Below are positions 22,102-40,673 of a stretch of DNA of 64,000 bases, piece after piece; the first letter of the stretch is position 1; each line of letters starts with the position of its first letter. A program made the translations under genes and the position numbers. The notes beneath the pieces were generated by a model. That model searched no databases. It had not been told where the DNA came from and saw only the letters and a list, made by a program, of their open reading frames with translations. This DNA comes from Spirochaetales bacterium (lineage in GTDB: Bacteria > Spirochaetota > Spirochaetia > DSM-2461): contig JAFGYD010000100.1 in the NCBI GenBank assembly GCA_016936295.1, forward strand, positions 426 to 64,425, written 5' to 3'.

Positions 22102-23394
22102 ATGGTAGAGAGAAAAATTGTTCAAGTAGATGATTCTGCACCGTTAATTTCTAAAAAGAAACAAAAACAGGCTGTAATAGCTTTGGGTGTTGTTTTAGGA
22201 ATTGTTGCAATAATTGTTATATTTATAGTTATGGGAACTTCCCAGAAGATCCAAAAGATAGGTGATTATCGGGTAACTAAGGTTACTAGTGGTTCATTAA
22301 CAACTTCAACTGAAGCGAGCGGAACAGTTGTTTTACCCACACAGGTTTCAATAGTTGCAATGGCAGAAGGTTATGCAAATCTATTAAATGTTTCAGTTGG
22401 TGATAGTGTAGATAAGTCAACAATATTAGCACAATTAGATGTCCCTGAATTAGAAAAAGATAAAGTGGACATTGAAAATGACCTTGAGACACAGGAAATT
22501 TCATTGGAACAAGTAGTTATCTCTAATGAATATGCAATTAAAGAGTTGGAGATAGATATTGCCAGAGTTGAAGATGACATTATAGACGCTACAAAGGATG
22601 TTGAAAAAGCTAAAGAACTTATGGCTTTAAAAAGTTCAAGAGAGTCAGATTACGATTTGGCTGTAGATGCTTTAAAGTCTTTGGAAAATCAGAGAGATGA
22701 TTTAAAACTTACCCTTGAAAAGACAATAAAACAGGGAGAACTTGATGTCAGATCAAAGCAGACACAGATTAAACAGAATAATTTGAATTTAGAAAGAATT
22801 AATGAGGATATTGAGGATTCAAAAATTACAAGCCCAATTAGTGGTTCTGTACTTACAATTTTAGACAAACTCTCAGTTCCTGGAAGTTTAATAGAACAGA
22901 ATTCTGAACTATTTACTGTTGCAGATACCAGTGATGTTTATATCGATTTAGAAGTGTATGAACAGTACCGGACTGCTTTAAAAGTGGGGGATAAGATGGA
23001 AGTTGTTATTAGTTCTAATGTAATAGAGGCAGAAATAATTCAGATTGGGTCAGTTGCTTCACTATCTTCGGATTCATTAGCAGCTACAATTGAGGTTAGG
23101 GCTAAGCCAATTGGCAATGTTGATTTAACTTTAGGTGCTTCCGCTGTTGCTGAAATACCTTTAGGGACTAAGGAAAATGCGTTACTACTCCCTAGAGGTT
23201 CTTATCTAACTTCAGGTAACCAAATGTATTTATATGTTGTAAAAGGAGATACCGCTGTAAAAACCAAGGTTACATACGGGACAATAAGTGGTAACGAAGT
23301 TGAAATTTTAAGTGGGGTTGAAGAGGGTGATCAAGTAATAATAAGTAGTTACCAAGGGTTTATAGATCAAGATGAAATTAAATTAGTTGAATAA
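22102..23394 (+). CDS. Periplasmic adaptor (MFP/HlyD family)
   Basis: N-terminal TM, coiled coil, ITSPISG and EILSGVEEGDQVI. Confidence 0.9.
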   Translation: MVERKIVQVDDSAPLISKKKQKQAVIALGVVLGIVAIIVIFIVMGTSQKIQKIGDYRVTKVTSGSLTTSTEASGTVVLPTQVSIVAMAEGYANLLNVSVGDSVDKSTILAQLDVPELEKDKVDIENDLETQEISLEQVVISNEYAIKELEIDIARVEDDIIDATKDVEKAKELMALKSSRESDYDLAVDALKSLENQRDDLKLTLEKTIKQGELDVRSKQTQIKQNNLNLERINEDIEDSKITSPISGSVLTILDKLSVPGSLIEQNSELFTVADTSDVYIDLEVYEQYRTALKVGDKMEVVISSNVIEAEIIQIGSVASLSSDSLAATIEVRAKPIGNVDLTLGASAVAEIPLGTKENALLLPRGSYLTSGNQMYLYVVKGDTAVKTKVTYGTISGNEVEILSGVEEGDQVIISSYQGFIDQDEIKLVE

Positions 23395-23407
23395 GGGGAA
23401 AATAGAG

Positions 23408-24097
23408 ATGATTACGTTAAAAAATATAAATAAGTTGTACGATTTAGGAGAGGTTAAAGTTAATGCTTTAAAGGGTATAGATTTAACTATAAATAGAGGA
23501 GATTATGTCTCTATCATGGGTCCGTCTGGTTCTGGAAAATCGACTTTAATGCATATAATGGGTATCCTGGATACCCCTACTTCCGGGCAATATCTTTTAG
23601 AGGACTACGATATAACATCACTACCGGATAGAGAGCTTGCAAGAATTAGAAATAAACATTTTGGTTTTATTTTCCAAAGTTTTAATCTGTTCCCAGAACT
23701 AAGTGCATTAGAGAATGTAATGCTTCCTTTAGGTTATGCCGGTGTTACTTACAGTAAAAGAAAAGATAGGGCGAAAGAGTTACTGGCAGAAGTTGGTCTT
23801 GGCCATAGAATGCAACACTTACCAACTATGATGAGTGGTGGAGAGCAACAGAGGGTTGCAGTTGCAAGAGCATTAGCTAACGATCCCGATCTAATTATTG
23901 CGGATGAGCCCACAGGAAATCTTCCTTCTGATAAAGGTCATGAAATTATGGATATTTTGGAAAAGCTTAATAACAAGGGTGTAACAGTTGTTATGGTAAC
24001 TCATAACCCAGAACAAGGAATGAGAGCAAAACGAACTATAAATATAAAAGATGGGTTATTGCATAGTGATGAGTTAAATAGTAAAGGAGGTGTATAG
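23408..24097 (+). CDS. MacB/LolD-type ABC ATPase (start placed at ATG 23408)
   Basis: [26 protein letters not shown] and VTH. Confidence 0.93.
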
Positions 24098-25491
24098 TGT
24101 CTAACGAAACGAGCTTAATTATGAAAAGACGATTTATGGGTAGAATCCTGGAATCGGGTCTTTTAATAATTGCTGTAGCTTTAGGGGTTGGAGCTGCTGC
24201 TTCTGGGCTTTCTTTAATGTTTCATACTAAAGAATATAGCCAAAATTTACTAAACTCAGCAGAGTATAAAGAGATTGTTGTAACAACAAGAGCAAATGTT
24301 GAAGATATGACCTATCCCGTAGTGGAGAAAACACCAAATACAACAACTCTGACAACTGCAGATTTAAAAGCAGGGGAGATTATAGATGAAGTTCTCTATT
24401 CCTATGTTGTATCATCATCACATATAAGATTAGTAACTGAAGAGAGTACTAATATGGGTTTCCCTAGGGAGGGAGGCGCGAATCCTCCACAAGAAAATGC
24501 AAACCCTGAAAATTCTAATGGTTCATCAAGTAATGAGATGCAACCGGGACCTCCGGAGGGAGGTGATAATATGGGGCAGATTTCCGAAATGCTGGAAACA
24601 TTTGAGGATATTAAAGAGAATCCGGACTATTTAGTTCCCGAAGTTGAGGAGATAGAGGGTGTTGAAGTTACAGCACAGTTTTTTGATGCGTGGGGTATTA
24701 ATGCACAGGATGGAAGTCTTTTTACGAGTTCGGACTATACCGGTAGTAGTAATATAATTGTTTTAGGTTCTGAAATGGCTAAAACATTAAATACCGGCAA
24801 TTACAATAGTGTTATAGGGAAAAAAATAGTAGCTTGGGACAAAGTATATAAAGTTGTTGGAGTTTTAGAGGAGACAGGTTCTAAATATGACAACTACTAT
24901 GTAACACCCAAAAAAGAGGTTTCCAATAGTTTTTTTATGCGAAGATTTGGAGACACTCAGTTAAGATTTTATGTAGATAATGTTAATCAGCTAGATACAA
25001 CGGCTACACAATTATCAGATTGGTTTACAACCCAGTATGGAGAGGGACAAGTTGAGATCTCTAACCCAAGGGAAGAGGCTTCAAAAGTAGTTAGTAGAAA
25101 TAATGGTATAAGTTTTTTAATTCTTTTTTTAAGTTTGGCAGGTCTATTTATTGCATCGGTTAATGTTTCTAATATTTTAATGAGTAGATCTTTAAGAATG
25201 AAAAAACATGTAGGTATTTTAAAGGCTTTAGGAGCTTCTAAAAAGAATATTTTAATGATTTTTGTAAAAGAAGCGTTACTTATAACCTCTATAGGTTCTG
25301 TTCTAGGAACATTCCTTGCACTTCCTCTATCTATAACCATGGAAGAGTCTTTAGGTTTGGGTGATGTTTCCTGGGTTTATATAATTATTGGTGTATTTAT
25401 GTCTTCTATCCTCACTTTAATTTTCTCGGTTTTACCTGCAAGACAAAGTGTTGATATAGAAGCTGCTGAAGCTATGAGATCGGCTGGATAA
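24097..25491 (+). CDS. MacB/FtsX-type ABC permease
   Basis: One TM, periplasmic domain and three TMs, with GILKALGA. Confidence 0.9.
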   Translation: MSNETSLIMKRRFMGRILESGLLIIAVALGVGAAASGLSLMFHTKEYSQNLLNSAEYKEIVVTTRANVEDMTYPVVEKTPNTTTLTTADLKAGEIIDEVLYSYVVSSSHIRLVTEESTNMGFPREGGANPPQENANPENSNGSSSNEMQPGPPEGGDNMGQISEMLETFEDIKENPDYLVPEVEEIEGVEVTAQFFDAWGINAQDGSLFTSSDYTGSSNIIVLGSEMAKTLNTGNYNSVIGKKIVAWDKVYKVVGVLEETGSKYDNYYVTPKKEVSNSFFMRRFGDTQLRFYVDNVNQLDTTATQLSDWFTTQYGEGQVEISNPREEASKVVSRNNGISFLILFLSLAGLFIASVNVSNILMSRSLRMKKHVGILKALGASKKNILMIFVKEALLITSIGSVLGTFLALPLSITMEESLGLGDVSWVYIIIGVFMSSILTLIFSVLPARQSVDIEAAEAMRSAG

Positions 25492-25501
25492 GGAAGGATT
25501 T

Positions 25502-26803
25502 ATGAAAAAACTAATTACAATGTTATTACGACACTGGGTTAAAACTCCAGTTAAAATATCATTAACAATATTGGCTGTTGCACTAGGTTCTGGAATATTA
25601 ATACTTTCGTTTAGTGCTAGTGCCATAATAGAGGATGAAATTACATCTTTAATGAATAAAGATGGACTCGTTCTACAGGTTGCAAACGGTGAATGGGGGG
25701 ATGATGGACAGATTGATCAAGAGAGACCAACCCAGTGGGATACCACAATTAGGGAGAAATTAATTACTGATAGTAGTTCTATTACCTATGCTTCAATGAT
25801 TTTAAATATGCCAGTACCATATATCACTGTTAATGGAAAGTCCTATCAGGCAAGAAATGCTTTAGGTACAGATAAATCCTATTTAAAGGTTTTTGGACTA
25901 GAAATAGTAGCAGGTGTGGAAATGACCGATGAAGACTTCGATTCAGGTCTAAAAAAAGTTTGGTTATCGGAAGAGAGTGCTAACATTTTATTTGGTTCCG
26001 CAGAAGCTGCTATAGGGAAACAGGTAACCCCTCCCGCAAGTGGAATGGGGCGAAGGGAATCAGAAGCTACAATCACACACTACAGTGTTGCAGGCGTATA
26101 TGAAAACCCCACTGAGGTTGCAAGAAGAGCTTATGCAATAGCGGATATTATTTTCCCAATGACAGCAATGATGCCCTCAAATAATAATAGGGGTATGAGT
26201 ATGCTTAATTTCCTGGCTGGTAACTTAGTTGTAAAAAGTGATTCTACATCTGTAGATAAAGTATCAGCAGAAATTAACCAAGTAGTAGAAAACAATTTTG
26301 GTGAAGATATAAAAGTAACTGTTTGGGAGGGTAACTCCAGGGGTGTTTCAACTTATATGGATGAGTTAAGACAGACAGTTTCAATATTTTCAATTTCCGT
26401 AAGAATTTTAGGGATAGTTTTACTTTTAACAAGTTCTTTGGGTATTTTTAGTATAATGGTTGTTGAAGCCCTTGGAAGAAGAAGAGAAATTGCAATTGAA
26501 AGGGCATTAGGTGCTTCAAGGCTTCAGGTAATTATGGAATTTTGGCAGTGGTCTGTTATGTTAAGTTTAATTGGGGCAGTAATAGGTATACTTTTATCGG
26601 TACTGCTTTCATCTACTGTGCTTGGAACAATGTCACCACTTTTAACAGAGTTAACAGGTTCTCTGGATATTAATACTGGCGTAAAACCACTTTCAGTTTT
26701 TTCTGGTGTCTCATTAGCACTTCTATGCGGGGGGATACTTGGAGTACTTCCATCATTTAGTGCCGTAAAAGGCGATATTGCAGATATTTTAAGGGAGGCA
26801 TAA
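25502..26803 (+). CDS. MacB/FtsX-type ABC permease
   Basis: RRREIAIERALGA, same topology as the preceding permease. Confidence 0.9.
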   Translation: MKKLITMLLRHWVKTPVKISLTILAVALGSGILILSFSASAIIEDEITSLMNKDGLVLQVANGEWGDDGQIDQERPTQWDTTIREKLITDSSSITYASMILNMPVPYITVNGKSYQARNALGTDKSYLKVFGLEIVAGVEMTDEDFDSGLKKVWLSEESANILFGSAEAAIGKQVTPPASGMGRRESEATITHYSVAGVYENPTEVARRAYAIADIIFPMTAMMPSNNNRGMSMLNFLAGNLVVKSDSTSVDKVSAEINQVVENNFGEDIKVTVWEGNSRGVSTYMDELRQTVSIFSISVRILGIVLLLTSSLGIFSIMVVEALGRRREIAIERALGASRLQVIMEFWQWSVMLSLIGAVIGILLSVLLSSTVLGTMSPLLTELTGSLDINTGVKPLSVFSGVSLALLCGGILGVLPSFSAVKGDIADILREA

Positions 26804-28072
26804 ATGAGATTTAAACTACTAACAGTATTTTTTATGGTATCTTCATTGGGATTCTCTCAAGCAACACTTTCTACTTTAAATGAAATAGCAGACTTTGCTA
26901 TTAATAATAGTCTTGACTCCAGGAGGAGTCAGGTTTCTCTTGACAAAGCAGAGAACGATGTAGTTTCTTATATTAAAGTTGATTCAACTAAGGTTTCTAC
27001 AACAGGTAATTATAATCAGGATGGGGATATAACCTTTAATACAAGCTTAAATATTCCTATTGTTGAGCAATTATCCATATCTGGAGGTGTAGATGGGGAG
27101 TTAAATGGCTCTGTCTCTTTAAATATAGATCCTATTGTACATTCAAACTCTGTTCCTTTGTCAGTTAATAACTATGATACAGCACTTCTTAATAATGTTA
27201 AGATTTTAAGCAGTGTAGAGCAAAATGCAGTTAAAGCAGCCCTTGATTGGATGCTTGGTTCTAGAGCTTTGGAATTATTGGACAAGCAGACCCAGAGGTA
27301 CAAAACTTTATACGAAGATGATAAAAATAGATATAGTAACGGTAGTATCACTTTAGACGAACTACAGGAGTCCTTGATTAATTGGTCCAATGCAAGAAAG
27401 AGTCTTCTTGAACAAAAACAGAGTTTTTATACCTTAGAAAGTAATTTATACGCGCAACTAGGTACAACTAAGGAGAGTGTAATTATAGAAAAATTAGATT
27501 TGGATGATATGATTGAATCTTTAAACCAGTTGTATCGTTTAGTAGAAAGTGGTAGTGGAGATTACTTGAAAGATATAGATTATCAATCAGCTGTTTTGAC
27601 TTCGGATAAAGCTAAACTTACATATAATGCAATATGGGTATACGACCCGGATATAACTGGGAGTATAAAACTTGATTTAACAGACCAAGGTGTGAGTATG
27701 GATAATTTTGCAGCATCTCTTAATTTTTCATTAAGTCTGGACAATGTTAACTACACAGAAAAGAAACGAGCCCAGGAGGAGTATCTTATATCTGTTAAAG
27801 ATAGGGAACTAAAACTGGATAAAGCTCGACTTGATTTTGAGCAATGCAAAGATTTAGTTGAAAGTAGTAAAATTGAATCAGAAATTTTCAAATTTGAGTA
27901 TGCACAGGCAGAGATTCTTTTATCAGAAGCTGTTATACTTTACAACGCTGGAGAGTATTCTGAAATTGAATTATTAGAGAGTAAGTTATTTCTTGAGCAA
28001 GCAGAGAATAATTTACTGAATTCCTATAAAAATGAGTATTTAAACTTGTTAGATTATTTAAAATATTTTTAA
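26804..28072 (+). CDS. TolC-like outer membrane efflux protein
   Basis: Signal peptide and two repeats ending RYSNGSITLDEL / LYNAGEYSEIEL. Operon context supports the call. Confidence 0.75.
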   Translation: MRFKLLTVFFMVSSLGFSQATLSTLNEIADFAINNSLDSRRSQVSLDKAENDVVSYIKVDSTKVSTTGNYNQDGDITFNTSLNIPIVEQLSISGGVDGELNGSVSLNIDPIVHSNSVPLSVNNYDTALLNNVKILSSVEQNAVKAALDWMLGSRALELLDKQTQRYKTLYEDDKNRYSNGSITLDELQESLINWSNARKSLLEQKQSFYTLESNLYAQLGTTKESVIIEKLDLDDMIESLNQLYRLVESGSGDYLKDIDYQSAVLTSDKAKLTYNAIWVYDPDITGSIKLDLTDQGVSMDNFAASLNFSLSLDNVNYTEKKRAQEEYLISVKDRELKLDKARLDFEQCKDLVESSKIESEIFKFEYAQAEILLSEAVILYNAGEYSEIELLESKLFLEQAENNLLNSYKNEYLNLLDYLKYF

Positions 28073-29382: not shown

Positions 29383-29601
29383 ATGAAAACAAGGACAAAT
29401 GTAAGCATCGATAGAGAACTTCTAGAAACAGCAAAAAGATATAATTTAGTGTTTTCTTCCCTTTTAGAAAAAGCTATTAAGTCTGAAATTAAAAAAATAG
29501 AAAAAGATCTTTGGCTAAAAGAGAATAGAGATCGCATAAGAAACTATAATGATAGAGTAAACGATGCAGGTGTTTTTAGCGATGATCTCAGGAGCTTTTA
29601 A
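29383..29601 (+). CDS. ccdA: CcdA-family antitoxin
   Basis: TNVSIDRELL...WLKENR...YNDRV...G.FSD..RSF. Confidence 0.9.
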   Translation: MKTRTNVSIDRELLETAKRYNLVFSSLLEKAIKSEIKKIEKDLWLKENRDRIRNYNDRVNDAGVFSDDLRSF

Positions 29602-29918
29602 TGGATCAATTTGATGTTCTACTTAACACAAATAAAAATAGTAATAAAGATGTTCCTTTCTTAATAATACTTCAATCGGACCCAATGAATTTATTAGCAA
29701 CTCGAATAGTTGCTCCAATTCGTGAAACATCAAAATATTTTGATCAGATTCTAACCAAATTACATATCTCCATCACTATAAACAACATTAATTATACAAT
29801 CTTTATTTCTGAATTAGCGGCTATTCCAACTAATGTAATTGGTGATAAAATTTTAAATGCAAGCTATCTCAGGGAGGAATGTACAAATGCTCTAGACCTT
29901 CTTTTTACAGGATTTTGA
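29601..29918 (+). CDS. ccdB: CcdB-family toxin (gyrase poison)
   Basis: MxQFDV, PFLIILQSD, TRIVAP and ALDLLFTGF. Coupled to ccdA. Confidence 0.9.
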   Translation: MDQFDVLLNTNKNSNKDVPFLIILQSDPMNLLATRIVAPIRETSKYFDQILTKLHISITINNINYTIFISELAAIPTNVIGDKILNASYLREECTNALDLLFTGF

Positions 29919-30421: not shown

Positions 30422-30450
30422 GGCTGTTACAATTGTCTATTATAACAGCC
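30422..30450. terminator. Hairpin between convergent genes
   Basis: GGCTGTTA...TAACAGCC. Confidence 0.6.
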
Positions 30451-30456
30451 TTATTA

Positions 30457-31437
30457 TTATTTCTGAATGTTTTTGTTTAAATTTCTAGTTGAGAGATATC
30501 TTTGTAGTAATATGAATAATGATATTAATACTCCTATAAAGATCTTAGTCCACCAAGTACTTAAGTTTCCCTGGAAAGTAATTATTGTCTGAATAAGTCC
30601 CAGAATAAGAATACCAATTAGCGTACCTTCAATAAATCCCATACCTCCGGTTAATAAAGTTCCTCCAATTACAACAGCTGCAATAACATCAAGTTCCAAA
30701 CCTGTCCCGGCTAGAGGGTAACCAGCTAGAGTATAAAGAGAATATACTAAGCCCCCTAAAGCACATAGTGTACTATTTAATGTATAAATTAAAACCTTGG
30801 TTTTCCCTACAGGCAGTCCCATTAGAAGTGCTGACTTTTCGTTTCCACCAATAGCATAAACATTCCTACCAAATCTGGTATACCGTAAAAGCAGAACACC
30901 TAAAATTACAGTACAAATAAAAATAATTGCAATAAATGGTATTTTTATTCCTTTATTTAAATGTATAGCTATACTAGACAGTTTAAGAAATGTTTCATCC
31001 CTAATGGGTACAGAATCTAAGCTTATTACAAATGATAAGCCCCTTGCAAGAAACATCCCTACAAGTGTAACAAGAAATGGAGGTAGTTCAAGGAAATGAA
31101 TAAGGGAGCCCATTGAGAACCCAAATAATGCACCACTTAGTAAACAGATGATAATTACAACAACAGGATCTAACGAAGTGTTTGCTAAAAGATTTGCACT
31201 TAAAACCCCTGTAAAAGCTACAAATGAACCTACAGAAAGATCAATTCCACCAGAAATAATTACAAAGGTCATTCCTACCGCAATAATTCCTACAAAAGCA
31301 TTATCTATAAATAGATTAATAAAAACTCTCGGTGAGAAAAAACCACGGTACATAAAAGCACCTGCAACATAGATAATAATAAACACTAATAGGGTTGTTA
31401 AAAGAGGTATATTTTTTTGATTTAGTTTAAATTTCAT
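30457..31437 (-). CDS. yjfF: Sugar ABC permease, YjfF-like
   Basis: DNAFVGI, GGIDLSVG, ELDVIAAVVIGGTLLTGG and WWTKI. Confidence 0.85.
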   Translation of the reverse strand: MKFKLNQKNIPLLTTLLVFIIIYVAGAFMYRGFFSPRVFINLFIDNAFVGIIAVGMTFVIISGGIDLSVGSFVAFTGVLSANLLANTSLDPVVVIIICLLSGALFGFSMGSLIHFLELPPFLVTLVGMFLARGLSFVISLDSVPIRDETFLKLSSIAIHLNKGIKIPFIAIIFICTVILGVLLLRYTRFGRNVYAIGGNEKSALLMGLPVGKTKVLIYTLNSTLCALGGLVYSLYTLAGYPLAGTGLELDVIAAVVIGGTLLTGGMGFIEGTLIGILILGLIQTIITFQGNLSTWWTKIFIGVLISLFILLQRYLSTRNLNKNIQK

Positions 31438-32465
31438 TATTTTCTCCCTCGTTTTAACAAATCTTTTAGTTGTGCTCTTAGTTTTTCTGATTGAATTAAT
31501 GCCACAATAATAATTATAAAAGCTTTAAATACTAACACCACTTGTGGAGGAATTCCTCTGGTTATTATTGTTGTTGATAATGCCTGAATTATTAGTGCTC
31601 CTATTATTGAACCGGCTAGGGAAAATCGTCCTCCATTTATTGTTCCTCCAATTATTACAGAGGCAATGGCATCCAGTTCTAGGAATAATCCTGCATTATT
31701 TGCATCTGCCGCCTGAATATCGGAGCAAACAATAATACCTGCCAATCCAGCACAAAATCCCGAAAACCCATATGTTAATGTTTTCATCATTTTTACTTTA
31801 ATACCCATATAGTGGCTTGCTAAAGGATTAGCACCTATGGCTTCTATAAATAGTCCTATAGATGTTTTTCTAGTTAAAAGCCATGTTATAAAAGTAAGTA
31901 AAATAACCAGGATAATTGGAAAAGGGATACCAAATAAGAATCCACTTCCAATAAATTGAAAAGACTCATGTTCAAATACAATAATTAATCCATGGGTTAT
32001 TAATTGAGCAATCCCTCTACCTGCTGTCATTAGTATTAATGTTGCGATTATTGGTTGAACTCCTATAAAGGCAACAAGAAACCCATTCCATAAACCTAAA
32101 ATTATAGAAATTAATAATGGTATTGATAACACAATAAATAGAGATGTAGTATTCCCATATTCAATAATCCCCTTTATATAATCAGGTCTTATTAACTGGG
32201 CTGATAGTGCACCGGAAATTGCCATTATAGCTCCAACCGATAGATCTACTCCTCCAGTTGCATAAACCAGAGTCATTCCAATTGTAATCAGCATTACAGG
32301 GGCTCCTCTGTTTAGAATATCAATTAAGGAACCAAACAGATGTCCGTTTTTTATTTGAATACTAAAAAATCCATCTGTAAAAAACAGATTAAACAGGAGT
32401 ATGGCTGACAAAGCTAATAGTGGATATAATAAATTCTTGTCTGCATTTTTTAATAAAGGTTTCAT
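31437..32465 (-). CDS. ytfT: Sugar ABC permease, YtfT-like
   Basis: GHLFGSLIDILNR, QPIIATLILM and ADANNAGLFLELDAI. Confidence 0.85.
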   Translation of the reverse strand: MKPLLKNADKNLLYPLLALSAILLFNLFFTDGFFSIQIKNGHLFGSLIDILNRGAPVMLITIGMTLVYATGGVDLSVGAIMAISGALSAQLIRPDYIKGIIEYGNTTSLFIVLSIPLLISIILGLWNGFLVAFIGVQPIIATLILMTAGRGIAQLITHGLIIVFEHESFQFIGSGFLFGIPFPIILVILLTFITWLLTRKTSIGLFIEAIGANPLASHYMGIKVKMMKTLTYGFSGFCAGLAGIIVCSDIQAADANNAGLFLELDAIASVIIGGTINGGRFSLAGSIIGALIIQALSTTIITRGIPPQVVLVFKAFIIIIVALIQSEKLRAQLKDLLKRGRK

Positions 32466-33997
32466 AGCTCGTAACCATCCTTAGCAATATAGTTCATTAT
32501 CGTGTTCTCCGTTAGTTTCTCTCCATAAAGTTCTCCAATTTTTTTTCTATCTTTTAAAATAGCAGCTCTGGAACAACATCTTATTACTTCATCTAATTCC
32601 GATGATATAAACAAAACAGACATATTATCTTCACTCATTTTATTTATAAGTTTTTCTATTTCTGATTTAGCACCAATATCTATACCTCTGGTTGGTTCAT
32701 CCAGAATTAACAATTTTGGATTCATAGCTAACCATCTAGCAAGGATTAATTTTTGCTGATTCCCTCCACTTAGTGTTCCTGCCATTTGCTCTAATCCTGA
32801 AACTTTAATTTGAAGGAGTTTAATAAATTTTGAAGTTATATCTTCCTGTTCCTTTCTTTTTAATCCATGTAAAATTCCATTTTTTGCTTGTAGGGCAAGA
32901 ACAATATTTTCTCTAACAGTTAGATCAGGTATTATTCCTTCAGTCTTCCTGTCTTCAGGGCAAAATGCCAAAGAGTGGGATATTGCATCTCTAGGAGACT
33001 TAATATTTACCAGGTTGCCATTAATATTAATATATCCACTTGTGTGTTTATCTATTCCAAAAAGAATTTTTGCCATTTCAGTTCTACCAGAACCTAATAA
33101 CCCTACAAGTCCAAGAACTTCGCCTTCCCTTATATCCATATCAAATCGTGACAAAACACCTTTTCTTTCAATCCCTTCCATTTTAACAAACATTTTTTTG
33201 TCATTGTGGTAGTAATCTCTATGAATTTTATTATTAAGTTCATTAATATCTGTAATTTCTTTCCCAAGCATTTTTGAAATAAGTTTAAGTTTTGGCAGCT
33301 CTTTAATTGGATATTCCCCCACAAATGAACCATTTCTAAGAACTGTTATATAGTCTGAATTTTGGTAAACTTGATCTAGGAAATGAGTTATAAAAATAAT
33401 CCCCATTCCTTCTTCTTTTAGTTTATTCATAATACTAAATAATTGCTCACACTCTGCTAAGTCCAGGCTGGATGTTGGCTCATCCAATATTAGTATTTTA
33501 GCTTTTATATCTAAAGATCTGGCAATCGCAATCATCTGCTGAATAGCAATAGAATATTGGGATAGTTGTATTGTAACATCAATGTCTATATCAAGCTTTT
33601 TAAGTGCTTCTTTTGCTTTCTGGTTCATGAGCTTCCAATCAACCATACCAAACTTCATAGGCTGTCTTCCTATAAATATATTTTCTGCAACTGAAAGATT
33701 TGGTACTAAATTAATTTCCTGATAAACAGTACTTATGCCTTTACTTGAAGCATCCATGGGGGAGGATGATTCAAAATCTAGTCCATCTACTTTTATGGAG
33801 CCCTTATCTTTTTTATGTAATCCAGTTAATACTTTAATCAGGGTTGATTTTCCTGCTCCATTCTCACCCATTAATGCGTGTATTTCACCACGCCGCAGGG
33901 TGAAATTAACAGAATCAAGAGCTTTCACACCGGGAAAGCTCTTGCTCAAACCCCTGATTTCAACTAGCTGAGAACTATCAGCTTTTAAATCAGGCAT
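32462..33997 (-). CDS. ytfR: CUT2 sugar ABC ATPase with tandem NBDs, YtfR-like
   Basis: GENGAGKST, LSGGNQQK and DEPTRGIDIGAK. Confidence 0.88.
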   Translation of the reverse strand: MPDLKADSSQLVEIRGLSKSFPGVKALDSVNFTLRRGEIHALMGENGAGKSTLIKVLTGLHKKDKGSIKVDGLDFESSSPMDASSKGISTVYQEINLVPNLSVAENIFIGRQPMKFGMVDWKLMNQKAKEALKKLDIDIDVTIQLSQYSIAIQQMIAIARSLDIKAKILILDEPTSSLDLAECEQLFSIMNKLKEEGMGIIFITHFLDQVYQNSDYITVLRNGSFVGEYPIKELPKLKLISKMLGKEITDINELNNKIHRDYYHNDKKMFVKMEGIERKGVLSRFDMDIREGEVLGLVGLLGSGRTEMAKILFGIDKHTSGYININGNLVNIKSPRDAISHSLAFCPEDRKTEGIIPDLTVRENIVLALQAKNGILHGLKRKEQEDITSKFIKLLQIKVSGLEQMAGTLSGGNQQKLILARWLAMNPKLLILDEPTRGIDIGAKSEIEKLINKMSEDNMSVLFISSELDEVIRCCSRAAILKDRKKIGELYGEKLTENTIMNYIAKDGYEL

Positions 33998-34011
33998 TTA
34001 TTTCTCCCTTA

Positions 34012-34977
34012 TTAATATGCTCTACTGTCTATAACTTTAGCTGCAACTTCCATAGGGAAAACATCTTCTTTTGTTACAATCCGTTTTGGAATCTTTTCTC
34101 CACGCATTAATGCTTCTGCTGCATCGAATAGTTGTGGTCCTAGTAACGGACTACACTCAACAGTAACATTTAATTTACCTGCTACCATTGCTTCAAATGC
34201 TCCTCTTACTGCATCGATAGAAACAATAATTATATCTTTTCCAGGGATTAAACCATACTCCTCTATAGCTTGAATTGCTCCAATAGCCATATCGTCATTA
34301 TGTGCAAATAGAACATTTATATTGTCACCTTCTGCTTTTAAAAATGCTTCCATTACTTCTTTTCCGCCAGATCTTGTAAAGTCACCACTTTGAGTTTTGA
34401 TTATTTTCATCCCTGGTTGACTTTTAATAACTTCTTCAAAACCTGTTTTTCTATCTATTGCAGGAGCAGATCCTACGGTTCCTTGTAATTCTACAATATT
34501 AACATCTGTTAAACCTTTTTCTATTAACCATCGAGCAGCTTTTCTACCCTCTTCGACAAAGTCAGAACCCATGAATGTAACCCAAAGTGAATCATCGGCT
34601 ACATCAACTGCACGGTCAGTTAATATAACTGGAATACCCGCTTCTTTTGCTTCTTTTAAAACAGCTTCAAATCCTGTTTCAACGACAGGTGAAAAGGCTA
34701 TAACATCAACACCTTGTGCAATAAATGTTCTAATAGCTTTAATTTGATTTTCCTGTTTTTGTTGTGCATCTGAAAATTTTAAAACAATATTTGACCTTTT
34801 TGCAGCCTCACTTTGTATTGATTCTGTGTTTGCTACTCGCCAAGCACTCTCTGCACCAATTTGTGAAAACCCAACAACAATTTTCCCGTCATCTTCTTTT
34901 TGCCCATTTGCAAATAAACCAGGAATACACATAATCATCATTAACATAACTGTTAATACTTTTAACGATCTTTTCAA
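34012..34977 (-). CDS. ytfQ: Furanose sugar-binding protein, YtfQ-like (start re-placed at TTG 34977)
   Basis: VGFSQIGAESAWR, DAQQKQENQIKA and HNDDMAIGA. AGGAG RBS lies before the TTG; LFANG signal peptide. Confidence 0.88.
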   Translation of the reverse strand: MKRSLKVLTVMLMMIMCIPGLFANGQKEDDGKIVVGFSQIGAESAWRVANTESIQSEAAKRSNIVLKFSDAQQKQENQIKAIRTFIAQGVDVIAFSPVVETGFEAVLKEAKEAGIPVILTDRAVDVADDSLWVTFMGSDFVEEGRKAARWLIEKGLTDVNIVELQGTVGSAPAIDRKTGFEEVIKSQPGMKIIKTQSGDFTRSGGKEVMEAFLKAEGDNINVLFAHNDDMAIGAIQAIEEYGLIPGKDIIIVSIDAVRGAFEAMVAGKLNVTVECSPLLGPQLFDAAEALMRGEKIPKRIVTKEDVFPMEVAAKVIDSRAY

Positions 34978-35012
34978 TTCTAACTCCTTTAATAATATAA
35001 TAATTTTTACAT

Positions 35013-35029
35013 TGCAATTGGTATGCCAA
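35013..35029 (-). promoter_or_regulatory. sigma54 (-24/-12) promoter of the ytfQ operon
   Basis: TTGGCAT-accaa-TTGCA, 35 nt upstream of the re-placed start and next to an NtrC-type gene. Confidence 0.85.
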
Positions 35030-35081
35030 TCGTTACTAGCATCAATATAACTCCATATAAGGGTTTTAGCCATAAAAAATA

Positions 35082-35142
35082 TTGACAACTCAATAGGTCG
35101 GGTGTATAAAATTTACACACTCTGTTTTTTGTTGTGTGTAAA
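35082..35142 (+). promoter_or_regulatory. sigma70 promoter of the regulator overlapped by candidate activator-binding inverted repeats
   Basis: TTGACA-N17-TATAAA. GTGTA-N7-TACAC at 35102-35118 and TTTACACAC...GTGTGTAAA at 35112-35142. Confidence 0.6.
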
Positions 35143-35150
35143 AAGGAAGC

Positions 35151-36485
35151 ATGATTTTGTCCAAATCCATATTAATAATTGATGATAATGTTAAATTATG
35201 TAAAAGTTTAAGTAGAAATTTTGAGCATTTAGGATACTCTGTTTTCAATAAATTCTGCAGTAACGATGCTATGGAACATATAAAGAGATATGTTCCGGAA
35301 GTTGTTTTATTAGATGTAGCTTTAGGGGATGAGAGCGGAATTGATCTTTTAAATGAGATTAAATTATATAACCATTTTATTCCTGTTATAATGATTACGG
35401 GTTATGGAACAATTGAAATAGCAGTTAAAGCTATAAAGTTGGGTGCTTTTGATTTTATTCAAAAGCCGCTTGAGTTTAATAAATTATTAGTCATTGTTGA
35501 AAATGCAATAAAAATGAGAAGTTTGAATATGGAGAATATAAATTTTAAAAATAAAATTTCTTCATTAAGCCGAGGTATAGTATCATCAAATAAAAAAATT
35601 CTTGAAATATTAAAAAAAGCAAACAAATTAGCTAATACTGATTTACCTGTATTAATTCAGGGAGAAAGTGGTACAGGAAAAGAGGGATTAGCAGAGTATA
35701 TACATAATAATTCAAATAGAAGCAGTAAGGATTTAGTAAAAATTAATTGCTCTGCATTCCCGGAAAATTTGTTAGACAACGAACTTTTTGGGCATGAGAA
35801 AGGAGCATATACTGGTGCACACACTAAGTTTAAAGGTGTATTTGAAAAAGCAGATGGAGGTACACTTCTACTTGATGAAATTGGGGATATGTCACTTCAG
35901 ACTCAGGCTAAAATACTAAGAACTTTGCAAAATAATGAAATTAGAAGGATTGGTTCCGAGGAGAATACAATAATAAATGTGCGTTTTATAGCTTCTACAA
36001 ATAAGGATTTAAAAGAACTAATAAAACAAAATTTATTTAGAGAAGATCTCTACTACAGGCTTTCCACAGCAACGCTTTACCTTCCCCCTCTAAGTGAAAG
36101 AATTGATGATATTCCTCTTTTGGTTGAACATTTTCTTGAAGACATAAATAAAAACAGACCCTCCGGAAATGTTGAATGCACCGAGGATTTTCTAAAGATT
36201 TTAATCGATCACAACTGGAGGGGTAATATTAGAGAGCTAAAAAATATAGTAAACTATTCTGCTGCAATATGTATGGGTAATAAGTTAGGCATTGAAGATC
36301 TACCCCCAACATTTCTCGGTGATCCCCAAGTAAAAGTATCTTATGATCTTATAAAAGATAATGAAAAGGGGCTAATAATTAAGACTCTTCAAAAGACTAA
36401 TAATAATAAAAAAGCAACTTCTGAAATATTAAAAATAAGTAGAAAAACCCTTTATAATAAAATGGAAAAATATGGAATCTCATAG
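35151..36485 (+). CDS. NtrC-family sigma54-dependent response regulator
   Basis: REC domain (IDDN, LLDV, KP), GESGTGKE, GAYTGA, LDEIG, FREDLYYRL and a Fis-type HTH. Confidence 0.95.
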   Translation: MILSKSILIIDDNVKLCKSLSRNFEHLGYSVFNKFCSNDAMEHIKRYVPEVVLLDVALGDESGIDLLNEIKLYNHFIPVIMITGYGTIEIAVKAIKLGAFDFIQKPLEFNKLLVIVENAIKMRSLNMENINFKNKISSLSRGIVSSNKKILEILKKANKLANTDLPVLIQGESGTGKEGLAEYIHNNSNRSSKDLVKINCSAFPENLLDNELFGHEKGAYTGAHTKFKGVFEKADGGTLLLDEIGDMSLQTQAKILRTLQNNEIRRIGSEENTIINVRFIASTNKDLKELIKQNLFREDLYYRLSTATLYLPPLSERIDDIPLLVEHFLEDINKNRPSGNVECTEDFLKILIDHNWRGNIRELKNIVNYSAAICMGNKLGIEDLPPTFLGDPQVKVSYDLIKDNEKGLIIKTLQKTNNNKKATSEILKISRKTLYNKMEKYGIS

Positions 36486-38304
36486 AAAAACTCCTATAGT
36501 TTCATTGTTAAATGTAAAACTATACAGGGAGGGGCATAAAGTTCTGGATAATATTTCAATTGAGTTATACCCCGGCGAAATTCATGCAATTGTTGGAGAT
36601 CACGATTCGGGGAAAACATATATAGGAGAAATACTCTCTGGTGTATATCAGCCTAGTGATGGGTATATTTATTTAGATAATGTAAAGCGTGACTACCTTT
36701 CTATTGCAAAATCTCAAGAGTGGGGTATACATACTATTCATCAGGATACTCACTTAATAGATAATTTTACGATTGCTGAAAATCTATTTACACCGTCATT
36801 TCCCAAAGCCAAATTCCCAAAAAATAAAAATAAGATGCTTGCTGAAGCTATAGGGATATTTAAGAGATTTAATATTGATATTGATCCAGGAAGACTATTT
36901 AAAGATCTATATCTATCTGAAAAAATAGTTGTAAATATTATAAGGGCACTTATTAGAAATCCCAGATTACTAATTCTTGATGAATCTTTAGATAAGCTAT
37001 CCCTAACCGATTTACAAAAAATAAGTAATATTCTTTATGAAAATATAAAACAAAACCTGTCTGTTTTATGCCTCTCCCATAAGATAGATGATATATATAA
37101 TTTTGCAGATTTTGTTTCAATATTAAGAAGTGGAAAAATATTTATAACAGACTCTGTAGATAATATAGATCGACTAAATTTAATTAAACTTTGTTATTAT
37201 CAGATTAATAGTGATGAAGATCTTTCTAATACTAGTAAAGAATTTTACCAACTTCTAAAGTATAACGAAGCAATACTTCAAAAGCTGCCTACTAATTTAA
37301 TAGTAACTGATGATCATAACAATATTAAATTGATTAACGAAACAGGTAAAAAGTTTTTTCTTATTGAGGATAAAAATTTCCGGGGAGAAAAACTCGATGT
37401 TTTAATAACAAACGAAAATAGAACACTGTTAAATTATCTTTATGATGCATTATATGAGAAAAAAGAGAGTTCACATTACAATTTACCCCTTTACATTGCC
37501 GGCATTGTTAAAGTAATTAATTTTAAAACATTTCCTATTTACGATGGCTCATTCCTTATTGGAAACATCATAATAATAGAGGATATCTCGGAACAGGAAA
37601 AACTTAGAGAACAGATAAATCTTTCAGAAAAATTAGCATCTGTTGGTTTATTGGCTGCAGGTGTTGCACATGAAATAAATAATCCGCTTGAAATAATATA
37701 TAATCATTTAAATTATCTAAATATAGGAGCAAAAGAAAAAGAACATAAAGAGATAATTTTAGAAATTGAAGAGGAGTTAAGGGATATAAAAGCTATTGTT
37801 AGTAATTTAATCTCTTTTTCAGACAACAATAATGCATCTAGTGAGATATACAATTTAAATGATCTTATTTTTAGTTTAATAAATCTTATTCGTTTTAATG
37901 CAAAGCATAAGCAGATTACAATTCTGTTTAATCCCATTGATAGTGATATTATGATTCAAACTAGTAAGAATGAGATGAAACAGGTTCTTCTTAATTTAAT
38001 GAAAAATAGCTTTGAAGCAATGCCTAATGGTGGAAATATTCAAATACAGACAAAAGTTGAAAACAGAGCTGGGTCTTCTTGTGCTGTAATTTTAATTGAT
38101 GATAATGGTTGCGGAATTGATGAAAAAAATTCCAGGGATATATTCCTTCCCTTTTTTTCTACCAAGAAGAAAAATGAACACAATATGGGGCTTGGGTTAT
38201 CTGTAATCTATGGTATTATTAAAAAATATAAAGGTGAAATTTCGGCTTCAAATAGACCTAGTGGAGGTACTCGTTTTAAAATCATCCTTCCCTGTATTTG
38301 CTAG
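36472..38304 (+). CDS. Histidine kinase with a fused N-terminal sugar-ABC ATPase-like domain and PAS
   Basis: GEIHAIVGDHDSGKT, HQD, IAENLF, LLILDE and SHK, then a PAS-like segment, AHEINNPL, NLMKNS, DNGCGI, PFFSTK and GLGL. No TM helix. Confidence 0.92.
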   Translation: MESHRKTPIVSLLNVKLYREGHKVLDNISIELYPGEIHAIVGDHDSGKTYIGEILSGVYQPSDGYIYLDNVKRDYLSIAKSQEWGIHTIHQDTHLIDNFTIAENLFTPSFPKAKFPKNKNKMLAEAIGIFKRFNIDIDPGRLFKDLYLSEKIVVNIIRALIRNPRLLILDESLDKLSLTDLQKISNILYENIKQNLSVLCLSHKIDDIYNFADFVSILRSGKIFITDSVDNIDRLNLIKLCYYQINSDEDLSNTSKEFYQLLKYNEAILQKLPTNLIVTDDHNNIKLINETGKKFFLIEDKNFRGEKLDVLITNENRTLLNYLYDALYEKKESSHYNLPLYIAGIVKVINFKTFPIYDGSFLIGNIIIIEDISEQEKLREQINLSEKLASVGLLAAGVAHEINNPLEIIYNHLNYLNIGAKEKEHKEIILEIEEELRDIKAIVSNLISFSDNNNASSEIYNLNDLIFSLINLIRFNAKHKQITILFNPIDSDIMIQTSKNEMKQVLLNLMKNSFEAMPNGGNIQIQTKVENRAGSSCAVILIDDNGCGIDEKNSRDIFLPFFSTKKKNEHNMGLGLSVIYGIIKKYKGEISASNRPSGGTRFKIILPCIC

Positions 38305-39067
38305 GAGAAATCCCTGTATGCTTTTTGAATTGTTTTGAAAACTGATAAATATCATCGTAACCTACAGTTGCAGCAATTGCAGAAATAGGTTGTGAACTTG
38401 ATGCTAAGTAGTGTTTGGCTATATTGAATCTCTCATTTAAAAGATCCTCTTTTGGAGATGTTCCAAAAAAGTATTTGTATAAAAAACTAAAACGGGATGA
38501 ACTTAATCCAGAAAGATTTGCTAATTGGGGTAGACTCCATTTTTTTGAAATAGAGGATAACATGGTTGTTCTTATATCACGAAAGGATAGCTCCAGGTCA
38601 TGGTAATACGGGTTTTGTTTGTGATCATTATTTCTATTATGCTCCCTTGATAATTCTATAAAGAAATTATTTATTAAATTACTAATAACTGCTTTGTATT
38701 CAATGTCTTTCATTAAATATTCTTTTTCAATCTCTAGTATCCTATTGTGAATCTGTATAGGGTTTTTAATTTTTAAAGGTTTATTTATGGGGAATTTTAA
38801 TAAATTCAGGTCATTTTCAAAATTTGCTTTAGAAAAATGGAACCAGTCATTATCAAATCCATTAACTGGATGGTGATAAAATTGTGGTGTATTTGGAGAA
38901 AAAAGTATAGCTGTTCCAGGTGATAGAATATTAGTTTTCCCATTAGTTACCAAATAGACGTCTGTGTGGAAAAGTAAAAAAAGAAAGTTCTGGGATCCGG
39001 AAGGCCTATCTATAATTAGGTTTTTATCTTCTTTGTAATGTGTGCCAATATATTCAAGATTTATCAA
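38282..39067 (-). CDS. AraC-family transcriptional regulator (start re-placed at TTG 39067)
   Basis: Cupin-like N-terminal domain, C-terminal VGYDDIYQFSKQFKKHTGISP and an AGGAG RBS. Confidence 0.9.
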   Translation of the reverse strand: MINLEYIGTHYKEDKNLIIDRPSGSQNFLFLLFHTDVYLVTNGKTNILSPGTAILFSPNTPQFYHHPVNGFDNDWFHFSKANFENDLNLLKFPINKPLKIKNPIQIHNRILEIEKEYLMKDIEYKAVISNLINNFFIELSREHNRNNDHKQNPYYHDLELSFRDIRTTMLSSISKKWSLPQLANLSGLSSSRFSFLYKYFFGTSPKEDLLNERFNIAKHYLASSSQPISAIAATVGYDDIYQFSKQFKKHTGISPSKYREG

Positions 39068-39197
39068 AAATATCTCCTTTGTAGGATAAAATGACAAATT
39101 AAAAGTTAAAAATAACATTTTAAATTATATATTTCGGGTTTACATTTTAACTATAATTTCTTGGTTTAACAAGAAATAAATAGAAAGGAGAAATAAA

Positions 39198-40673
39198 TTG
39201 ATAACATACATAGTTTCACCAAAGAAGAGAAAATCACAAATTGATAAGAATATATACGGACACTTTTCCGAGCATTTGGGGCGGTGCATATATGAAGGAA
39301 TTTTTGTTGGAGAATCATCATCCATTCCAAATCATTACGGGATGAGAGACGATGTTGTAAATGCTTTAAAAAAAATTAAGATCCCGGTATTAAGATGGCC
39401 AGGAGGTTGTTTTGCAGATGAATACCACTGGAAGGATGGTATAGGGAAAAAAGAAGACCGTAAAAAAATGATAAATACACACTGGGGTGGTGTAGTTGAG
39501 GATAATAGCTTTGGAACCCACGAGTTTATGAAATTATGCGAGATCCTTGGTTGTGAACCCTATATTAATGGGAATGTTGGTAGTGGAACTGTTCAAGAGA
39601 TGGCTGAGTGGGTTGAATATATATCATTTGGTGGGATGTCCCCAATGTCGAACTTGCGGAAGGAAAATGGTCAAGAAAACCCATGGAAAATTAAATATTG
39701 GGGTATAGGTAATGAAAACTGGGGTTGTGGTGGAAATATGCGAGTGGAATATTACTCCGATTTGTATAGGCAGTTTGCAACTTATGTTAGAAATTTCGAT
39801 GGTAATAAAATATTTAAAATAGCCTGTGGACCTTCGGATGCCAACTATAACTGGACAAAGGTATTAATGGAAAATGCAGGTAATTTAACTGATGGTATAA
39901 CACTGCACTACTACACATTTACCAATGGCTGGAACGATAAGGGGTTTGCCCTGGTTATGAATGAATCCGACTTCTATAGCACATTACAAAAGACTCTGGT
40001 TATGGATGAGTTAGTTACAAAACACTCTGCTATAATGGATACATACGATCCTGAAAAAAGAGTTGCACTTATTGTTGATGAGTGGGGAACTTGGTTCGAT
40101 GTGGAGCCAGGGACAAATCCAGGGTTTTTGTATCAGCAAAATACTATGCGTGATGCCCTTGTTGCCGGTATTAATCTAAATATTTTTAATAAACACTCTG
40201 ATCGGGTAAGAATGGCAAATATAGCTCAGATGGTAAATGTTCTGCAATCAGTTATTTTAACAGAGGGTGAAAAAATGATTTTAACACCTACCTATCATGT
40301 TTTCGAAATGTATAGTGCTCATCAGGATGCTACATTAGTTGAAAGTTTTATTGATTCAGGAACTACAGGAACTAAGGATATTGTTGTTCCCGATGTTACA
40401 GAGTCCGCTTCTGTTGATGCTCTTGGAAATATAACTATGACTTTTTGTAACCTTGATATTCATAATGAAAAAGAGATAGAGACAACTCTTTTAGATTTTA
40501 ATTCAACAGATATTACAGGAGAGGTTTTAACAGGAGTAATGGATGCACACAATACATTTGCTAAACCAACAACTGTTGAAAAGAGTAGACTGAAAACTAT
40601 AAAAAAAACTAAAACTGGTTTTTTAGTTACACTTCCTCCATGTTCAATTGTTAAGGTTGTAGCAAAAGCATGA
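39198..40673 (+). CDS. abfA: Alpha-L-arabinofuranosidase, GH51
   Basis: [31 protein letters not shown] and MANIAQ. Confidence 0.93.

Follow-up and report, generated by a model that had tools for sequence, protein, structure and literature searches.

The DNA analysed here, a 64,000-nucleotide stretch of a Spirochaetales bacterium (contig JAFGYD010000100.1, positions 426 to 64,425; hereafter the window), encodes at 36472-38304 (+) a single-frame, 610-aa histidine kinase whose input domain is an ATP-binding cassette (ABC) nucleotide-binding domain (NBD). We found that this kinase represents a real and conserved family that is apparently uncharacterised, its input domain not having been found described. 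The kinase, an NtrC-family activator and the sigma54 promoter of a sugar importer very probably form a regulatory circuit, which is well supported because the fusion is conserved, its partner is of NtrC type, a sigma54 site faces the importer and a palindrome between the genes is conserved. As to how a signal is received, sequence comparisons incline us, by a modest degree, to the reading that the kinase docks on the importer as a mimic of the first NBD (NBD1) of the importer ATPase and so controls a furanose, likely arabinose, uptake operon.

A kinase family with an ABC input domain

The domain order of the kinase is NBD, PAS, HisKA and HATPase, and its parts are as follows.

36493..37206 (+): input domain (aa 8-245), an ABC NBD allied to the NBD1 of CUT2 ATPases, with Walker A GDHDSGKT, Q91, LILDE and H203
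37207..37587 (+): conserved helix EFYQLLKYNEAIL and PAS-like domain (aa 246-372), from conservation, models and a weak PAS_4 match
37645..38304 (+): HisKA (H400 in AHEINNP) and HATPase_c kinase core, from Pfam; H400 is present in 120/120 homologues

Pfam matched ABC_tran at aa 25-172 (E 5.7e-18), HisKA at 392-452 (PF00512, 33 bits, above the cut-off of 26.9) and HATPase_c at 500-607 (PF02518, 70.8 bits). The PAS domain was recognised from a weak PAS_4 match on the excised middle part of the protein (E 3.6e-4; 21.2 bits against a cut-off of 23.1) and from a PAS-like order of strands and helices at aa 275-371 in the predicted model. The first-pass annotation of the window, which had described these four domains in one frame, thus stands with three of them matched by Pfam. 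The N, G1, F and G2 boxes of HATPase_c are present (N508, N512, D544-x-G546, F561, G573 and G575 are invariant among homologues), and with these boxes and a phospho-accepting His the kinase classes by sequence as HisKA class I. No transmembrane helix was found, as had been stated: the highest 19-residue Kyte-Doolittle mean in the kinase was 1.29, compared with 2.55 for a permease, and a mean of 1.8 was reached by 2/120 homologues, both within the kinase core. We claim no arrangement of the domains because the full-length model had a low pTM of 0.43 and a disordered NBD-PAS linker.

ABC_tran, HisKA and HATPase_c occur together in 120/120 homologues listed, the first of which is the window kinase itself, at 42-73% identity across 95% or more of the length. 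At least 66 full-length fusions with Walker A and H-box were found among 150 listed 50%-identity representatives. The source names of the fusions include Spirochaetales, Spartobacteria, KSB3 (Vecturithrix, Moduliflexus), Desulfomarina and the named species Pseudodesulfovibrio indicus (WP_066806149.1). Matches were present in 14/401 genomes of the window's phylum, among them the source genome, which carries one kinase copy and rpoN; the nearest named relative is a Spirochaetaceae genome (71%). A single-protein scan of genome contigs returned 4 loci, 2 of them true fusions. The possibility that the fusion is a singleton or an assembly chimera, raised with the first-pass annotation, was ruled out by the shared architecture of the homologues listed and by one contig of a sequencing run, possibly a source of the same DNA, that covers 33900-38400 with 0 differences. 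A full-text literature search, with most subscription journals outside its reach, listed no paper that describes a kinase of such architecture in its title or the opening of its abstract, and no solved structure among the matches listed combines an ABC NBD with kinase domains.

The input domain has an ABC NBD fold, matched by Foldseek to LptB and MJ1267 with target TM-scores of 0.77-0.87. The kinase NBDs form one clade (FastTree support 0.993, n=65; SH-aLRT 97, n=23), which groups with the first NBDs of RbsA/AraG/YtfR-type ATPases (SH-aLRT 94). The window kinase NBD and the neighbouring ATPase are 27% identical over 235 aa (BLAST, E 6e-28). Five motif pairs quoted earlier for these two proteins all fall in this alignment but mark no special closeness, since the neighbour's NBD1 ranks 17th among 36 cognate ATPases for the window kinase. 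Recent duplication of the neighbouring ATPase was ruled out by this identity, this rank and the single clade of kinase NBDs.

Motifs were compared between 65 kinase NBDs and 47 NBD1 and 47 NBD2 halves of ATPases. G42, G47, K48, Q91 and D170 are invariant in the kinases, and conservation amounts to 100% for Walker A and the Q-loop, 100/94% for the Asp/catalytic Glu of Walker B and 86% for the switch His; the window kinase keeps the motifs listed above. Walker A carries a family-specific His (95%) where NBD1 carries Asn (98%), and the family-specific H44 and E174-K175 are located on the NBD dimer face. The catalytic Glu is replaced in L026, L032, L034 and L050, and the switch His in the first three of these. 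Of the seven kinases paired with Gaf-type importers, four have lost the catalytic Glu and three the switch His; catalytic and A-loop residues are eroding within the window kinase's subclade. Such erosion would suit an NBD that is the vestige of an old ATPase-kinase fusion, retained for folding or dimerisation and devoid of any sensory role. We consider this very unlikely, with the Walker A Gly and Lys, the Q-loop Gln and the Walker B Asp invariant in 65 divergent kinases and full-length NBDs retained across several phyla.

The first-pass annotation had overlooked that the NBD is devoid of the trans-acting ABC motifs. In place of the LSGGQ signature the window kinase has LYLSEK, and SGG[QNE] was found in 0/120 homologues and in 1/66 full-length representatives; the NBD1 of CUT2 ATPases likewise has no LSGGQ. 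The D-loop, DEPTxxLD/T in both ATPase halves (Pro 96% and Thr 91% in NBD1), reads DESLDKLS in the window kinase with the Pro-Thr absent, and most kinases have ALEK instead. An ABC catalytic site requires the signature motif of the partner NBD. Because LSGGQ and the D-loop proline are absent, ATP hydrolysis at the NBD by a kinase dimer appears unlikely; the pump's NBD2 could complete the catalytic site of the kinase NBD. In RbsA, catalysis takes place principally at the first NBD, according to work cited in a passage of PMC13739795.

The regulatory circuit and the partner importers

Upstream of the kinase gene, the window contains the following regulatory features.

35151..36485 (+): NtrC-family response regulator with a receiver domain (REC; D55), a sigma54-activator AAA+ domain (GAYTGA) and a Fis-type helix-turn-helix
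35013..35028 (-): sigma54 -24/-12 element TGGCATACCAATTGCA facing the importer; no other stretch of the window fits the strict pattern exactly
35082..35110 (+): TTGACA-N17-TATAAA, read from the sequence, a probable sigma70 promoter for the regulator and kinase genes, with its -10 box inside the palindrome
35102..35120 (no strand): palindrome GTGTATAAAATTTACACAC, probable activator site, ~110 bp upstream of the sigma54 start

The regulator and kinase genes overlap by 14 bp, in agreement with the overlap reported before. We annotated 100 loci (the window, L001, L002, 19 genome stretches and 78 metagenome loci) by BLAST against references drawn from the window and the loci, leaving out metagenome loci L118 and L120, in which no open reading frame (ORF) was classed as a fusion; the 100 fusion ORFs fell into 76 clusters at 80% identity. 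The gene directly upstream is of NtrC type in 65/65 clusters with a 1.5 kb flank. D55 is present in 36/36 regulators and GA[FY]TGA in 23/36, with variants in 13.

The strict sigma54 pattern is expected 0.09 times by chance and was present in 9/100 shuffles. When sites were scored at 9 or more of 11 consensus positions, 41/55 loci had one upstream of importer genes, compared with 1/55 in the antisense control (two promoters, each shared by two kinases, were counted twice); the consensus sigma54 promoter that had been placed at the importer operon is borne out by these sites and by the single strict match. On the regulator strand, TTGAC was found in 20/32 loci versus 4.6 expected. A sigma70 scan of the sequence was at chance level (40 found versus 43.7 expected) and, because it demands a T at position 6, did not list the promoter at 35082-35110.

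The 19-bp palindrome is the only perfect consensus match in the source genome, and a palindrome-like element (at least 10/12 consensus positions) was found in 22/32 loci versus 2.7 expected, these loci having also supplied the consensus. Palindrome scores above 10/12 occurred at none of the source genome's 22 other sigma54-like sites, and one-mismatch palindromes were at control level genome-wide (41 versus 39), so that no wider regulon is claimed. The palindrome is probably an enhancer-like binding site of the activator. The glnA/NtrC arrangement is a template for an activator that drives a divergent sigma54 operon and represses itself, and by this analogy the promoter layout in the window is the one expected.

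The importer operon consists of the following features.

34012..34977 (-): YtfQ/GafA-like furanose-binding protein (NF041827, 379 bits, below the cut-off of 510)
32462..33997 (-): YtfR-like tandem-NBD ATPase (best match NF041861, 687 bits, below the cut-off of 850)
31437..32465 (-): YtfT-like permease (BPD_transp_2; best NCBIfam match NF041862, 348 bits, below the cut-off of 535)
30457..31437 (-): YjfF/GafD-type permease (BPD_transp_2, Pfam PF02653; NF008630, 430.8 bits, cut-off 363)
30422..30450 (-): hairpin after the last permease gene, a possible terminator (weak; 7 such sites versus 3.8 expected)

The best NCBIfam matches follow the gene order YtfQ, YtfR, YtfT, YjfF, with only YjfF above its cut-off, and the best Protein Data Bank (PDB) matches of the binding protein are the GafA/YtfQ structures 6HYH, 6HBD, 5OCP and 2VK2 (E 3e-102 to 3e-89). 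These matches uphold the earlier description of a ytfQRT-yjfF-like operon divergent from the regulator and kinase genes, and by its GafA-type binding protein and gene order the importer classes with the Gaf/YtfQRT-YjfF kind. Its ATPase carries GENGAGKS and DEP in NBD1 and LSGGNQQ with a degenerate Walker A in NBD2. The binding-protein start, previously set at 35088, is probably TTG 34977 instead, judging from AAGGAG at 34984-34989 and comparison with L001. The WRVAN of the binding protein resembles the dual-specificity Mycobacterium smegmatis-type WRTAN and not the Shewanella WRTSF (a passage of PMC10191376, with our own residue mapping), and the substrate is likely L-arabinofuranose or D-galactofuranose. 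We infer that arabinose is the likely sugar because AraC and GH51 alpha-L-arabinofuranosidase genes flank the kinase, arabinofuranosidase and GH43 genes lie nearby in L001, and an arabinose isomerase gene occurs in L034. The flanking region 38282-40673, in which the AraC-family regulator gene is divergent from the GH51 gene, is a second, one-component arabinose circuit, and its 3' end shares 23 bp with the kinase gene.

A permease and an ABC ATPase were found within 8 kb in 24/25 clusters that have long flanks at either end and in 53/76 of all clusters, compared with an informal chance estimate of ~7% per such neighbourhood (~10 CUT2-like ATPases in 2.85 Mb of source genome). No transporter part was found in 11 clusters, 10 of which have less than 2.2 kb upstream, while the eleventh, L106, has no downstream flank. 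The association of homologues with sugar ABC operons and NtrC genes, proposed for checking with the first-pass annotation, therefore holds. The only long-flank miss is L034, whose orthologous importer is found on a different contig of that genome, at its truncated start. In L034:4904-10904 the sigma54 site is kept and points towards a gene for a lipoprotein-like product with Big_5 and ice-binding domains, and arabinose catabolic genes lie downstream of the kinase.

The importers are divergent, downstream or convergent, have one or two permeases of many clades and tandem or single NBDs, and include single-NBD, single-permease types at L036, L041, L104 and L115; the family serves many CUT2 importers beyond the furanose ones. 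The idea that the kinase NBD substitutes for a missing ATPase gene was ruled out, the importers retaining their own ATPase. An extra BPD_transp_2 permease gene lies tail-to-tail after the kinase at L063:10323-11363, L066:4951-6051, L078:10373-11335, L079:7946-8908 and L081:2046-3008. It is a sister of the permease clade of the sigma54 operon in two lineages (L063/L066 and L078/L079/L081), and may serve as a dedicated docking partner or represent half of a heterodimer that has been displaced. In both L047 and L099, one importer operon lies between two separate activator-kinase pairs. In L031, the kinase ORF (9450-10898) stops at 482 aa and the cognate ATPase (12719-14135) is split into two ORFs, so this locus is possibly decaying or error-bearing.

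Docking on the importer and its alternatives

Docking is supported only indirectly, because a periplasmic signal could not reach the kinase in any other way and because the kinase NBD weakly co-diverges with the permease and NBD2. Co-divergence was measured over 36 loci with a complete unambiguous module by partial Mantel tests controlling for kinase core, activator and composition; L109, where the ATPase next to the kinase is part of a peptide-type importer, and 7 other ambiguous loci were dropped. The NBD tracked the permease with r 0.26 and NBD2 with r 0.34 (p 0.001), compared with 0.16 for NBD1 and -0.03 for the binding protein, and linker-PAS, DHp, CA and REC (the dimerisation, catalytic and receiver parts) tracked none of the importer parts. 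In three draws of a dereplicated set (19 loci, one per permease cluster), r was 0.18-0.43 for the permease (p 0.056-0.002) and 0.24-0.36 for NBD2 (p 0.014-0.002), the latter holding in 3/3. Permease and NBD2 distances are themselves correlated. This pattern weakly suggests that the kinase NBD stands in for NBD1. Gene conversion with the neighbour's NBD1 was rejected as its source, given that the NBD1 correlation vanishes after dereplication. At positions that we presume to face the permease, assigned from the MalK structure, the groove residues G57, N104, F106 and K/R158 are kept in the kinase NBDs.

Several observations weigh against docking. The groove is only partly kept, because E92 (94% in NBD1), P97 (70%) and G108-R109-E110 (57-72%), which fall just after the Q-loop and after AENIF, vary in the kinases. 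The co-divergence is weak and not confined to the groove segments, its permease component reached p<0.05 in 2/3 dereplicated draws and missed it in one, and Mantel tests overstate significance among non-independent kin. Kinase and activator distances correlate at 0.7-0.8 and each is near zero against the importer, and because kinase-importer distances are nearly uncorrelated, partners must have changed more than once. No complete importer is without an ATPase gene of its own, and L106 has no importer in 9.9 kb upstream, its downstream side being cut. In L035:853-5823 the kinase is paired with a Liv-type importer (Peripla_BP_6, two permeases and two single ATPases) and a sigma54 site, so the partners are not sugar pumps alone. 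Finally, the PAS domain could be the true sensor.

One rival reading has the two NBDs of a kinase dimer replace the whole ATPase on a permease pair, yielding a non-transporting receptor composed of a binding protein, two permeases and the kinase dimer. HisKA kinases are dimeric, which supplies the two-NBD stoichiometry, and the single-NBD, single-permease partners, the extra sister permeases in two lineages and the family-specific residues on the dimer face all favour it. However, an ATP sandwich of the kind formed in pumps is unlikely between two kinase NBDs without a signature motif, NBD co-divergence is as strong with NBD2 as with the permease, and the extra permease of L066 lies last in a longer operon and is possibly a displaced gene. 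We rate this arrangement as rather unlikely.

A free cytoplasmic sensor, in which the NBD reads ATP/ADP or a phosphorylated metabolite, the PAS domain binds a sugar or catabolite and the importer is merely a regulated target, is likewise unlikely. It would account for a P-loop, Q91 and D170 that are invariant while the docking groove has partly drifted, and for the catabolic kinase, isomerase and dehydrogenase genes that flank many loci; the usual aromatic at position 19 is missing from all seven kinases paired with Gaf-type importers, an absence that might accommodate a non-adenine ligand. But an energy signal carries no sugar specificity, the PAS interior is variable, linker-PAS tracks neither binding protein nor permease, and the presence of a whole 240-aa CUT2-type domain beside CUT2-type importers would otherwise be unexplained. 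Because kinases with one and the same P-loop are paired with importers from many permease clades, a sugar-specific NBD pocket is disfavoured.

If the kinase docks as an NBD1 mimic, its NBD would bind nucleotide or phosphate through the invariant P-loop, in a kinase dimer unable to complete the ABC catalytic site, and would contact the permease coupling helix in an orientation that probably faces the NBD2 half of the YtfR-like ATPase. Movement would be relayed through the conserved YxQ...EFYQLLKYNEAIL helix and the PAS domain to H400, and the phosphorylated regulator would bind 35102-35120, activate the sigma54 promoter and repress its own overlapping sigma70 promoter. Specificity would be set by the binding protein. 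By analogy with DcuS/DctA, the free kinase may be ON and idle pumps may hold it OFF, so that a tight sigma54 operon could get started. On balance, the sequences slightly favour a widespread and undescribed class of receptor, in which a kinase impersonates an ABC motor, plugs into the permease coupling helix and reports transport load to sigma54.

Known transporter co-sensing employs separate membrane kinases or adaptors. If the above is true, a motor-bearing kinase would be a direct one-protein readout of ABC importer conformation, flux sensing could be tested in a soluble construct, and the recruitment of a single soluble protein could make a sensor of any CUT2-type importer, with the pump, or else a dedicated copy of the permease, serving as the kinase's transmembrane receptor. 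It would also explain the regulation of many monosaccharide importers in anaerobic sugar fermenters (spirochaetes, KSB3 filaments and some sulfate reducers). Since no relative of CUT2 permeases was found among PDB structures, a kinase-permease complex would be structurally new.

Related sensing systems and neighbouring genes

By likeness, the kinase would belong to the transporter co-sensing two-component systems. Among these, BceS is an intramembrane kinase and BceR an OmpR-type regulator, and CbrA joins a membrane transporter fold to a STAC linker. The kinase described here differs from the Bce type in being soluble, in bearing its own NBD and in having a sugar importer as partner and sigma54 signalling, and the sequence features of Bce-type flux sensing were not found: the kinase has no transmembrane helix and the permeases are BPD_transp_2, not FtsX-family. 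CbrA also differs from it, the transporter-derived part here being a cytoplasmic motor domain with no membrane part. As in BceAB-BceS-BceR of Bacillus subtilis, a kinase that has no large sensor domain would read an ABC transporter, and the genes of that transporter are under the control of the regulator, whereas BceS is a separate membrane protein and its transporter serves peptide-antibiotic resistance (PMC4513084, PMC6978683). As in PstSCAB-PhoU-PhoR/PhoB, an ABC importer and its binding protein would govern a kinase without a canonical periplasmic sensor, and contact would likewise be at the ATPase subunit, but there a separate adaptor, PhoU, bridges PstB and PhoR (PMC6978683), in contrast to a kinase with its own NBD. 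No PhoU-like gene was recognised in the annotated loci, in which no profile search for PhoU was made.

In CbrA/CbrB and other SLC5-STAC kinases, too, a transporter-derived part is fused to a kinase of PAS-HisKA type, which signals to a sigma54 activator (PMC11109136). In DcuS-DctA/DcuB, transporter contact sets the kinase state and loss of the transporter leaves the kinase ON, as may be the case here, but the partners are secondary carriers and the membrane kinase has its own periplasmic ligand site (PMC6978683). XylFII-LytS-YesN is similar in that a two-component system switches on a CUT2 pentose importer (xylFGH), and different in that the binding protein docks on an extracellular domain of LytS (PMC8050422), which the kinase here does not have. 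Lastly, GafABCD/YtfQRT-YjfF importers share gene order, heterodimeric permeases, binding-protein sequence and arabinofuranosidase neighbours with the window operon, and those described are under AraC or AraR-like one-component control (PMC10191376), unlike the window importer, which appears to be controlled by the NBD-kinase, an NtrC-type activator and sigma54. The wiring of a soluble kinase, an ABC motor domain and sigma54 was not found in the papers searched.

Beyond the end of the importer operon, a CcdB-family toxin gene (Pfam) lies at 29383-29918 (+), preceded by an overlapping 72-aa ORF that we take to be a CcdA antitoxin. A cluster at 23387-28072 (+), comprising an ATPase, two FtsX-like permeases and a TolC-like protein, is presumably a MacAB-type ABC exporter.

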